Source: Escherichia virus TH26. Taken from it: a stretch of DNA of 51,200 nt. The notes under the pieces were generated by a model that had not been told where the DNA came from, did no database searches, and was given only the letters and a program-made list of their open reading frames with translations. Within the stretch, counting starts at the first letter, position 1. Each line of letters opens with the position of its first letter. The DNA lies in sequence record MT446400.1; one strand, 5' to 3'. Of the stretch, positions 35,995-38,164 are shown piece after piece. The translations under genes and the position numbers were made by a program.

Positions 35995-36216
35995 TTATTT
36001 TAATGATGCCTGTAATGACGCATTTAGTACAGAACGCTTTTCATATTCGCGTTGATTGTACGTGTTTGTCAGTGCTTCCGCAGCTTCGATTGACAGAGCC
36101 GCAAATCCACCAAAGGCGTTGCGAACTTCTTCAATATCCATGTGCAGGACTTCATTGGTAATTTGGTTGGCAATTGCAGCCTTGAAAATCTCTTCGGCAA
36201 TTTCAGCAGTTTTCAT
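35995..36216 (-). CDS. Hypothetical protein
   Basis: 73 aa ORF downstream of the ThyX-like gene. Confidence 0.3.
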   Translation of the reverse strand: MKTAEIAEEIFKAAIANQITNEVLHMDIEEVRNAFGGFAALSIEAAEALTNTYNQREYEKRSVLNASLQASLK

Positions 36217-36865
36217 GTTTCTCTCCAGTTAAATTTAAGTAAGTGCCCTGACGTGGACTATTACGAACATTACAATAAATTGGCTTAAATGATGTTTCCA
36301 CTGCGGCCAAGACACTTATTAAATTTGATTCGAACCGCCCAAGTGAATCAGCTTTGTTTATGGGGACCATCGGGGAAAAGTATAAACCCGCTTAATGCTC
36401 GCATCATGTTTGAACATTAAGAACCCTGACTTGCATATTTCATGTGAATAGGAACATAGTCTGGATTTTGAATCCAGCTAACTTCGAGAAGAGGAGTAGC
36501 TCAAACGAAAGCCTGAACTTTCTTTCGACACATCACAATCAGCGCAACTGAGCCGTATCGCTACGGTATGCCAGACGCTCTCTTGAGCCTTTTGAACAGA
36601 GGCATAACTGCTTAGGAATTCTGTGGCCTTTACGCGGCCAACGTGCCATTAATGCTGGCAAGACAGAGCTAACGTTCTCAAGCACTTTGGCGAGGGTGTT
36701 CTCGGACACTGTTCTAGGAAGTGACCACCTGAACTTTCTCGCGTTCAATACGAGGCAGCAATTTCAATTGTTATGCCCAGAGCAATTGCAGGAATTACAC
36801 CTGCCATGCTACAAGTAGCTAGAGTCTCGTTATTTAAAGTCGCGCACTCCCTCGACTTTGTTCAC

Positions 36866-37075
36866 TCACTGTCGGGTAAGTTGGGAACACTTTTGTGCCC
36901 ACGTTTCATTGTGGACTAAAATCTGGGTTTTGGTTTCGCGTGACAAAACTTTCACTTCTGCAACATCCAAATAGGTTGGTTGTGCAATTAAGCAATAATC
37001 ACTTACGAACCCACTTTGAGAGCAACTCACTATCGACATTGCTATCAGAACTGCTAGACACTTCTTTCTGAACAT
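36866..37075 (-). CDS. Outer-membrane spanin-like lipoprotein (o-spanin candidate)
   Basis: 69 aa; signal peptide with lipobox-like SIVSC; short mature part with additional Cys; overlaps the 3' part of the preceding ORF in another frame. Confidence 0.5.
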   Translation of the reverse strand: MFRKKCLAVLIAMSIVSCSQSGFVSDYCLIAQPTYLDVAEVKVLSRETKTQILVHNETWAQKCSQLTRQ

Positions 37076-37235
37076 GCGATTTAATCTCGATAGATTCTTT
37101 TAACGAATCGAATTGCTTCTCTTTGGCTTCCTGACGCTCCTCGGCTTTGCCTGAGCTTTTGCCCTTGAGGAACACTGCAATGAGAATACCCAATGCAGTC
37201 AAGACGCCAAGAAATATTGACTTAAGCTGTTGCAT
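36999..37235 (-). CDS. Inner-membrane spanin-like protein (i-spanin candidate)
   Basis: 78 aa; N-terminal transmembrane helix (IFLGVLTALGILIAVFL) followed by a charged, coiled-coil-like segment. Confidence 0.45.
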   Translation of the reverse strand: MQQLKSIFLGVLTALGILIAVFLKGKSSGKAEERQEAKEKQFDSLKESIEIKSHVQKEVSSSSDSNVDSELLSKWVRK

Positions 37236-37399
37236 GAATCACCTTAGATGGCGCACGCACCACTTGAACAGTCGTTATCGCCAGCACCAGGAACGATTGC
37301 TTCTTCGTCCTGCTTCTTCTTAAGTTCTTCAATCGCCTCTTCGGCAGCACCGAAGTCCAAATTGTCTAGTGCGTCAATGTCCATGAGGACTCCATGTTT

Positions 37400-37495
37400 G
37401 TTGTTGAGAGTGGCGGACGAGGTTGGATTCGAACCAACGACACATCTGTCTTACAGATTGCTCTACCTGACTAAGCTCTGGAGCAGACCTTCTGA
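37400..37495 (-). tRNA. tRNA gene (96 nt with encoded CCA) carrying a ~19-nt insertion in the D-arm region; anticodon not confidently assigned
   Basis: Minus-strand sequence has a 7-bp acceptor stem (GGACGAG/CTCGTCC), a T-arm GTTGG-TTCGAAT-CCAAC, discriminator G plus CCA, D-arm elements GCTCAG...GTCAGGTAGAGC, and an extra hairpin AAGGTCTG-CTC-CAGAGCTT. Confidence 0.55.
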
Positions 37496-38164
37496 GCTAC
37501 TCGTCCAAAGAATAAGAGGGGGGTTTTGATAACGCAGGTTTTCCCGAACTGCGAGGCTTGTAGCAAGACAGTCGCATTACTTTGCGAATGCCAGCAGGAT
37601 TGATGGTCCGACCGTCTTTGCTTAGGCAACCTGATTTAATCTACCTTTGTAGATACCATCGGTTATGAGCAGTTTATTTCCATGCTCAGGGCAATTCACT
37701 TTAGGCGAATTAAGTTTGTACCTTGTCACACCCGCACGCACCTGGGGGGCTTAAGTCTGCATTACATCGCAAGATACAAATTAATTGGCTCTCCGATTTA
37801 TTAATCACATCTCGGAGAAACAATGCGCCAAATTTGGTTACATGGGATTGGAAGACCACGGAGAGGACTTAAATTTAATTAAGCCGCAACTCGCATTTCA
37901 GAATCATTTGCACTTGTGTTTAGTGTTTAAAACAGTCGCAATAACTTCAGGCAGTTTAGGCCCGTCGTAAGACTCAGAAAACTACTTCAATTTGTACACA
38001 ACAAATTTCCCAACATTGGCTTCCGTCGAAGGCTCATGCGATGGTGTTTGGATTATGCACAAATTGAAACCCACTCACTCGGAATGGATTCAAGGCAGCA
38101 CCGGAAATCTTCCAGTGCATGCCAGATCGATTTAGCTTAGTCTCTCAAGTTTGCCATCGGCAAC

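Follow-up and report, generated by a model that had tools for sequence, protein, structure and literature searches.

A conserved, putatively pseudoknotted RNA island between the spanin genes and the replication genes of Escherichia virus TH26 and its relatives

What is encoded in the stretch of about 650 nucleotides (nt) that separates the spanin genes from the thyX and primase/helicase genes in Escherichia virus TH26? The window analysed here is a stretch of 51,200 nt from this phage (record MT446400.1), a Carltongylesvirus genome (phiEcoM-GJ1-like; Chaseviridae, Cleopatravirinae), and the gap in question lies between the stop codon of the o-spanin gene and the start of a gene for 73 amino acids (aa). 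An earlier note had read this segment either as a structured RNA or as a remnant of inserted DNA. The comparison of related phages shows a multi-domain, pseudoknotted RNA on the - strand that is under strong purifying selection. With modest confidence, we favour the reading of the gap as a structured non-coding RNA island whose product is a stable, trans-acting RNA akin to GOLLD and ROOL; we infer that it would accumulate stably and act in trans as an RNA of that kind.

A 901-nt query around the gap matched 47 phage records at 91-97% identity, all of them Carltongylesvirus (including phiEcoM-GJ1, Mangalitsa, flopper, and the TH and PYps phages). All sampled genera of the Cleopatravirinae have a gap of 0.65-1.5 kilobases (kb), poor in open reading frames (ORFs), at the syntenic position, where it separates the spanins from the thyX/primase block. 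It was found in Carltongylesvirus, Faunusvirus, Sabourvirus, Loessnervirus, Suwonvirus and Aeromonas phage phiA050, the gap-bearing phages beside GJ1 being Faunus, 4HA13, Aioli/Fifi44, Y2/Calisson/SSEM1, PM1/PP101 and phiA050. The phiEcoM-GJ1 gap is 1,066 nt long and has no annotation in RefSeq. No gap was found upstream of the primase gene in Nefertitivirinae (LA93P2) or Shantouvirus (ZPAH14), where the region is densely coding. Sensitive blastn with the gap alone as query showed non-coding cores that are 74-97% identical between genera, while the ThyX proteins of the same phages are only 67-72% identical. Within the genus, two parts of the gap, module A (36217-36383) and module B (36384-36618), are 96-99% and 95-99% identical, compared to 68-86% at the third codon positions of thyX and 77-88% at those of the 73-aa gene. 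Non-coding DNA of the gap is thus under stronger constraint than synonymous sites.

About 92 base pairs were tested in three modules and 40 of them showed compensatory changes, all above the shuffled controls and above slid controls, in which pairing partners were displaced by 1-3 columns. The comparison with related phages that the earlier note had suggested therefore bears out its structured-RNA reading. The features of modules B and A are as follows, all on the - strand.

36587..36611, - strand: 5' H-type pseudoknot of module B, GCAG-uuau-GCCU-CUGU-ucaaa-AGGC
36425..36575, - strand: module B core, outer and inner long-range helices around four hairpins
36553-36566, - strand: enclosed hairpin Pd
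36507-36522, - strand: enclosed hairpin Pc
36483-36505, - strand: enclosed hairpin with the CUCCUC loop
36461-36477, - strand: enclosed hairpin Pb
36371..36421, - strand: 3' hairpins of module B, Pa CUUAAUG...CAUUAAG (36391-36421) and GGG-uuuauacuuuuc-CCC (36371-36390)
36227..36349, - strand: module A, small hairpin GAUUC-acuugggcgguuc-GAAUC (36327-36349), then a long irregular hairpin

The structure of module B (RNA sense, 36625 to 36344) was written by hand and tested on a MAFFT alignment of 12 lineages. Compensatory changes were found at 22 of its 54 pairs, and 91.3% of the cells were paired. The covariation score was 0.273, as compared to 0.132 for the shuffles (0/500 reached the observed value) and no more than 0.117 for the slid controls. 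RNAalifold, which is independent of the hand structure, gave 39 pairs in this module, 17 of them compensated; one helix that it proposed, UAGCG/CGCUG, was replaced by a covarying CCGUA/UACGG hairpin.

Both stems of the 5' pseudoknot were 100% paired in the 12 lineages and both carried compensatory changes; across 19 sequences stem A has at least 5 variants and stem B at least 7. The outer long-range helix joins UCUG+GCAUA (36575-36567) with UAUGC+CAGG (36437-36425), shows a C-G to U-A exchange in 4 lineages, and contains a G, in UAUGC, that covaries with its partner in GCAUA. The inner one, UGUGA/UCACA, has two compensated positions (A-U to U-A and U-A to G-C), and all four of the enclosed hairpins covary. 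These include Pb, which is the 7-base-pair (bp) hairpin ctggatt-ttg-aatccag that had been singled out in the earlier note; it is present as described, covaries between genera, and is accompanied by further inverted repeats. With two covarying long-range helices (~90 and ~150 nt) enclosing four hairpins, together with the pseudoknot, module B is predicted to be a single folded domain of ~190-230 nt. All 19 sequences share CUCCU, UCUGG and most of GAAAUAUGCAAG.CAGGGUU without change, and the CUCCU(C) loop resembles the anti-Shine-Dalgarno sequence. Towards the 3' end, Pa has compensatory changes at 4/7 pairs, and the GGG/CCC hairpin changes from CGGG/CCCG to CAGG/CCUG between genera. Sequences of the Loessnervirus type ("type 2") retain the pseudoknot, the outer helix and the CUCCUC hairpin; their interior has diverged, with an analogous inner long-range helix formed by UGUUGCG/CGCAACA or by UUAAUACG/CGUAUUAA.

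The small hairpin of module A has a conserved 13-nt loop, and its stem varies between phages (AGUCC/GGACU, GGUC/GACC, UAUAUU/AAUAUA). It is followed by the long irregular hairpin (36326-36231), whose arms lie at 36297-36326 and 36231-36257. RNAalifold gave 26 pairs in module A, 11 of them compensated. Three pairs (U·G or G·U) are near-invariant; read from the + strand, they would turn into A·C. Only 4 nt separate the end of the module from the Shine-Dalgarno sequence (36214-36226) of the 73-aa gene.

Upstream of these two modules in transcription order lie the C modules.

36821..36859, - strand: C1, H-type pseudoknot with stem 1 AAAGUCG/CGACUUU
36808..36819, - strand: hairpin C1b, GCUAC-uug-GUAGC
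36752..36787, - strand: C2, near-invariant 36-nt element, GCUCUGGGCAUAACAAUUGAAAUUGCUGCCUC
36691..36725, - strand: C3, two hairpins, CACU-uccuagaac-AGUG (conserved loop UUCCUAnAACAG) and CGAG-aacacc-CUCG
36625..36660, - strand: C4, two predicted hairpins, UGCCA-gcauuaa-UGGCA and GGCC-gcguaaa-GGCC

The loop GGAGU of C1 pairs with a downstream ACUCU across the conserved linker UUAAAUAACGAGA. Compensatory changes were found at 7/12 pairs, including all 5 of the pseudoknot stem, with 86% of cells paired; 0/500 shuffles reached this result, and the slid controls had no more than 2 compensated pairs. A covariance model of C1 found exactly one copy per phage in 21/23 Cleopatravirinae loci; the two outgroup loci (Nefertitivirinae, Shantouvirus) had no copy. 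The stem of C1b also covaries between phages (CCAC/GUGG, CCAGU/ACUGG, GCAAC/GUUGC, CUCAG/CUGAG). Erwinia Loessnervirus phages share 92-95% identity over the interval 36673-36733, which holds C3, and the compensatory changes of C3 run from CACU/AGUG to CUUC/GAAC and from CGAG/CUCG to AGAG/CUCU or UGAG/CUCA. C4 is conserved only within the genus and ends at an insertion hot spot (36618/36621), where tRNA genes, or 130-355 nt of additional DNA, are present in relatives. C2 is 95-97% identical in Faunus and 4HA13, where it stands beside the spanin stop codon and not between C1 and C3, and it is absent from PYps23T. As read from the sequence, its own pairing is slightly better on the + strand, so C2 may be a protein-level or DNA-level site.

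Two further contacts between modules were considered and set aside. A long-range pairing of GGCAUAAC in C2 with GUUAUGCC in the module B pseudoknot is perfect in the window and uncompensated in 4HA13, and was not adopted. A kissing loop between GGGAG of the C1 loop and CUCCUC of module B was rejected: the C1 loop has a local partner, and in Faunus the two loops are not complementary.

The strand of the RNA was judged from wobble pairs. Over all tested helices, G·U cells outnumbered A·C cells 71:16 in the - sense; the ratio was 45:8 in the two hand-derived structures, and 12:4 at pairs predicted on either strand that show Watson-Crick covariation. Together with the orientation of the genes and the tRNA, this ratio points to the - strand as that of the RNA, and speaks against an element that acts at the DNA level only. 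All genes of the genome, including those near the gap, are on the - strand, and the gap lies downstream of the spanins and the tRNA-like gene, as the earlier note had placed it. In transcription order the locus reads as follows.

37506-37414, - strand: tRNA-like gene (Rfam tRNA model, 41.5 bits), first in transcription order
Between the tRNA-like gene and the i-spanin gene, - strand: 46-aa ORF
37235-36999, - strand: i-spanin gene
36866..37075, - strand: o-spanin gene (PHROG 1275, Rz-like spanin), its stop codon bordering the gap
36865-36217: the gap, ~650 nt, between the o-spanin stop and the start of the 73-aa gene
35995..36216, - strand: 73-aa gene (PHROG 32967), its start bordering the gap
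35938-35288, - strand: thyX
35282-33519, - strand: primase/helicase gene

The phage-promoter motif known from the GJ1 annotation (ATTAGTTGGANGNGGA, at most 2 mismatches) occurs at five sites in the window, as compared to 0.25 expected by chance.

38913-38928, - strand: phage-promoter motif ATTAGTTGGANGNGGA
40750-40765, - strand: phage-promoter motif
40878-40893, - strand: phage-promoter motif
47459-47474, - strand: phage-promoter motif
48309-48324, - strand: phage-promoter motif

None of the sites is inside the gap, the nearest one upstream being 38913-38928. The gap contains no terminators, and its sigma-70-like sites are not above chance. With neither promoter motif nor terminator in the gap, the RNA would be made by read-through from upstream promoters. 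Signals of a replication origin were also sought, and no iterons, significant direct repeats or turning point of the GC skew were found.

The tRNA-like gene (37414-37506) lies ~550 nt upstream of the gap. It is non-canonical: its 93 nt include 24 nt inserted into the D-loop, and its anticodon arm can be closed to a 5-nt loop (AUCUG-UAAGA-CAGAU). GenBank labels it tRNA-Arg that 'may contain an intron' and ARAGORN calls none in the window; the homologues of GJ1 and DE15 are called tRNA-Leu(cag) by ARAGORN, and that of SA91KD tRNA-Ser(gct). Just upstream of this gene is a conserved - strand hairpin (37522-37566, AAGCCUCGCAG-uucgggaaaac-CUGCGUUAUCAAAAC), whose identity in Faunus, 4HA13, phiA050 and Aioli is 78-86%. 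The Aioli copy (locus L012:1816-1857) is inside the large non-coding gap of that phage, which suggests that the RNA island reaches beyond the spanins in the window. Another - strand hairpin, UGAGCA-uggaaauaaac-UGCUCA (~37660-37692), lies inside a 39-aa ORF (37741..37622); it covaries, the stem being UGAGUA/UACUCA in Faunus and including a U·G pair in Aioli, where it stands directly before module C1. The GJ1 annotation places an 80-aa protein, gp30, over this region. Only 27 of its residues align in the window, so the ORF may be spurious.

The observation of the earlier note that the gap holds no credible ORF was confirmed: every reading frame contains 7-17 stop codons, and no PHROG family was found for its ORFs. 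Only two are present, a 55-aa frame (36370..36203, - strand) and an Arg-rich 69-aa frame with a TTG start (36748..36539, - strand). Neither had a PHROG match, and when the sequence was read directly neither had a Shine-Dalgarno sequence upstream. The gap does not offer the open frame, ribosome-binding site, family match and synonymous bias of a protein-coding gene. The gap had also been called visibly GC-rich, which did not hold: its GC content is 44.6% as compared to 43.9% for the window, at the 57th percentile of 641-nt windows, with 48% in the right half and 40% in the left half.

Relatives carry extra DNA at positions corresponding to ~36618/36621 (130-355 nt), ~36752 and ~36857-36885 of the window, the last including HNH endonuclease genes. 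The window has the shortest, tRNA-free version of the locus, and it is the relatives that bear insertions, not the reverse. Its segment is therefore no insertion remnant, and this second reading of the earlier note was rejected, the segment being the most conserved non-coding DNA of the region and the minimal form of the locus. Transfer RNA genes on the - strand were found in the homologous gaps of PM1, Fifi44, Aioli, Calisson, Y2 and SSEM1 (tRNA-Cys of PM1, 47 bits; tRNA of Fifi44, 38 bits), and relaxed ARAGORN thresholds gave further Trp, Cys and Phe tRNA calls in the gaps of relatives. About 12 nt separate the CCA ends of these tRNAs from the helix with which module B opens, that of the 5' pseudoknot.

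HNH homing endonuclease genes are variably present among close relatives (L003:2761-3207, L008:2033-2479, L001:1215-1658, L006:384-836), at the o-spanin/C1, thyX/primase and thyX/73-aa gene junctions; the window has none. An accessory module present in GJ1, Mangalitsa, PYps3T and Faunus (L001:3019-3240, L005:1519-1873, L009 ~1830-2280) is deleted in the window at 36618/36621. It contains a tRNA-like minihelix, GUGGA-guucaccgaa-UCCAC-CA, for which neither ARAGORN nor Rfam gave a tRNA call.

Several public records disagree with this picture of the locus. Some of the PYps3T (L005), PYps23T (L007) and DE15 (L008) records give the name 'tail tape measure protein' to the 73-aa gene upstream of thyX and 'endolysin' to the i-spanin, and the Y2, SSEM1 and 2KOFFS records (L129, L130, L003) fill the RNA gap with mutually inconsistent small hypothetical ORFs. 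PP952070.1, 'Staphylococcus phage Pel53' (host Staphylococcus hyicus), has the same RNA island, with 92% identity over the 901-nt query and 85% over the gap alone; its Staphylococcus host label looks wrong, or the sample was contaminated.

The island sequence had no match in 5,426 complete E. coli genomes, which indicates that it is not host-derived. Both signature motifs were confined to phage contigs of Chaseviridae size (~52-56 kb). Among the 90 loci listed from a metagenome scan with the module B motif, the second signature was found only in L039, L045 and L100; the remaining loci were taken as chance matches (L037 was checked and rejected), as were 5 matches in unrelated metagenome-assembled genomes from a scan of bacterial genomes. 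Sequence similarity to phages outside Chaseviridae was not detected, except for tRNA-Cys matches.

The covariance-model search proposed in the earlier note was run with Rfam models, and no family beyond tRNAs was matched. All 4227 models of Rfam 15 were searched with cmscan at the gathering score: nothing was found in the gap, and the tRNA model matched only 37414-37506 in the window. With E up to 10 over 36000-37600, only the tRNA and two chance matches appeared, and with E up to 1 in nine relatives, only tRNAs. The lack of a match in Rfam 15 rules out GOLLD, ROOL, hepatitis delta virus (HDV)-like ribozymes, known riboswitches, RNase P RNA and transfer-messenger RNA (tmRNA). A search of the window with ARAGORN gave neither tRNA nor tmRNA, and thresholds of 90% gave none in the gap either; the gap has no tRNA or tmRNA cloverleaf. 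The RNA is not described in the 4HA13, ST32 or Tiny papers, nor in the part covered of a 2023 catalogue of ~10,000 viral structured-RNA candidates, whose supplementary tables were outside this coverage and may include the locus.

Under the reading that we favour, the island would be transcribed within a polycistronic early/middle transcript spanning the tRNA-like gene, the spanins and, downstream, the replication genes. Its core of ~385 nt (modules B and A, 36611 to 36227), invariant in order, would begin with the small H-type pseudoknot, continue with a multi-helix junction closed by the two long-range helices and displaying the invariant CUCCU(C) loop, and end with the long hairpin of module A; C1-C4 (36859 to 36625) would be accessory modules upstream of the core, including the second pseudoknot. 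Host tRNA-processing enzymes (RNase P, RNase E) would set the ends of the RNA, and in tRNA-bearing relatives this processing would leave the small pseudoknot at the 5' end of the core. The window would represent a minimal version from which the embedded tRNAs have been lost. From there, the core would either work in trans as a stable RNA or serve as the leader of the replication operon, in a protective or regulatory capacity. Possible roles in trans are contact with the ribosome or with Shine-Dalgarno sequences of messenger RNAs (mRNAs) through the CUCCUC loop, a decoy for host defence, and higher-order RNA assembly; that the loop contacts purine-rich RNA, the translation apparatus or the ribosome is speculation from its sequence.

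The alternative of a leader acting in cis is possible, if doubtful. Processing at the upstream tRNA or at an AU-rich spacer would leave B+A on the mRNA of the small gene, thyX and primase/helicase, where they would block 5'-end-dependent RNase E decay or tune translation, for example through CUCCUC and the GGAGAG Shine-Dalgarno sequence. This model keeps substantial weight because the core always directly adjoins the ribosome-binding site of the next gene, with no insertion between them in any sampled genus. It also agrees with the absence from the gap of a promoter or terminator of its own, with the position of the pseudoknot, which would become a new 5' end after tRNA processing, and with the complementarity of the invariant CUCCU loop to Shine-Dalgarno sequences. 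Against it, the next gene varies by genus: tblastn with the 73-aa protein gave no match beyond Carltongylesvirus, and the downstream 500 nt of Y2-like phages have no tblastn match to thyX. No conserved terminal helix sequesters the Shine-Dalgarno sequence, and at least 12 helices over 385 nt go far beyond the needs of known stabilisers or translational operators. The C modules, moreover, are conserved even where tRNA processing would sever them from the mRNA. A trans-acting RNA is favoured over the leader because the structure is more elaborate than known leaders, the downstream gene is inconstant, the C modules are kept where they are detachable, and GOLLD and ROOL offer an analogy. It appears improbable that the gap is a co-inherited cluster of small, mutually independent cis elements (processing sites of RNase III or RNase E, hairpins that bind proteins, signals at which the phage RNA polymerase pauses or terminates). 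Such a cluster would account for a module order that differs by genus with genes or tRNAs between modules, for the two hairpins upstream of the tRNA-like gene falling within the single large gap of Aioli, and for C2, which behaves as a movable 36-nt site; it does not account for module B, which looks like one folded domain and not a row of isolated hairpins, or for the C1 pseudoknot with its conserved linker, unlike known RNase III sites or terminators, and terminator-like sites were not found in the gap.

Conservation due to small protein-coding genes, mainly the 55-aa frame, is very unlikely. That frame is open in 8/8 Carltongylesvirus relatives examined, and the PYps and 2KOFFS records list it as a hypothetical protein. 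Besides lacking a PHROG family and a Shine-Dalgarno sequence before its ATG, it is frameshifted or truncated at the C-terminus among close relatives (43-64 aa), its few substitutions are mostly non-synonymous, and it covers module A only. No equivalent ORF exists in 4HA13, Aioli, PM1 or Y2, though the nucleotides are conserved with compensatory pairs, and the gap ORFs annotated in different records are mutually inconsistent. Hardly credible, finally, is a DNA-level element (replication origin, packaging site) or neutral debris of a decayed tRNA array or inserted DNA. The location just upstream of the primase/helicase-polymerase block, the tRNA genes and tRNA-like fragments at the locus in relatives and the homing endonuclease genes inserting nearby would fit; the wobble asymmetry points to selection on RNA, not duplex DNA, origin signals and phage promoters are missing from the gap, and debris would show neither conservation far above synonymous sites nor the shortest version of the locus in the window.

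Several observations weigh against a single, stable trans-acting RNA. The minimum free energy of the - strand gap RNA is unexceptional (z = -1.15), so the number of inverted repeats is not the signal and the evidence is comparative. The covariation was measured on MAFFT-based alignments, in which Pb and the GGG/CCC hairpin were only 60-75% paired, and because the sequences are related the shuffle controls overstate significance, the weight being carried by the slid controls and the independent stem variants. Genera differ in part in the order of the modules: C2 changes place, and modules are set apart by spanin genes, tRNAs and HNH genes. The island may hence hold several RNAs instead of one, and its separable modules fit an array of independent elements as well as one large RNA. 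The constant contact of the core with the next ribosome-binding site, which fits a leader, belongs here too, and the literature gave no study of any Chaseviridae phage by RNA-seq or Northern blot.

Large structured RNAs of this kind are rare, and every new class has proved informative. GOLLD and ROOL occur mostly in prophages and metagenomes, which are hard to manipulate. The island is in lytic ~52 kb coliphages of the phiEcoM-GJ1 group and in routinely grown phages of Erwinia, Pectobacterium, Yersinia and Aeromonas, some of them used for biocontrol. If the reading is true, genetically tractable E. coli phages would allow direct functional tests of such RNAs. Public annotations, in which 0.65-1.5 kb are left blank or filled with discordant small ORFs, would be corrected, and the repeated exchange of tRNAs and homing endonuclease genes at fixed module borders would give a view of the evolution of phage tRNA islands.

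Among known systems, compact H-type pseudoknots with an A-rich third loop recall the preQ1-I, SAM-II and fluoride aptamers, and the position upstream of a gene block that includes thymidylate synthase recalls cis leaders. Unlike riboswitch leaders, the island has no Rfam match and no constant downstream gene (the 73-aa gene is confined to its genus, and thyX does not always come next), lacks a terminator, and has its pseudoknot ~370 nt from the ribosome-binding site, with the Shine-Dalgarno sequence outside the conserved helices. HDV-like 'theta' ribozymes lie directly downstream of phage tRNAs, and the conserved pseudoknot likewise begins a few nt after the 3' end of a phage tRNA. It is a simple H-type pseudoknot of 4+4 bp, without P3/L3 or P4, and not the nested double pseudoknot (P1, P1.1, P2, P3, P4) of those ribozymes. 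An HDV-like threading of the core was rejected: the candidate P1 (CUGAU/GUUAG) varied without compensation in one alignment (A2), and no Rfam model of HDV type matched. The tRNA gene cluster of phage T4 includes a homing endonuclease gene and produces stable non-tRNA small RNAs, species 1 and 2, that are co-transcribed and processed with the tRNAs. Like these, the island would be a structured non-tRNA RNA at a phage tRNA locus with HNH genes nearby, though larger and pseudoknotted.

The nearest systems are GOLLD and ROOL, phage and prophage RNAs that are often found near tRNA islands, with tRNAs sometimes located in the linker region of GOLLD (PMC12286853). Unlike them, the island matches neither Rfam model in sequence or structure, is carried by lytic myophages of Enterobacterales and Aeromonas from a single subfamily, consists of separable, reorderable modules, and has a smaller contiguous core of ~385 nt. 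Assembly into a homo-oligomeric RNA-only nanocage counts among the traits of GOLLD and ROOL. Tentatively, then, it may be an undescribed, Cleopatravirinae-specific class of large multi-pseudoknot RNA, the third 'ornate' RNA of tRNA islands beside GOLLD and ROOL, with a core that would act in trans after tRNA processing. Like both of them it is phage-encoded, hundreds of nt long and rich in covarying helices and pseudoknots (two of the H-type over ~640 nt), without an associated protein, and it lies at a tRNA locus, with tRNA genes nested in the variable linkers of relatives.

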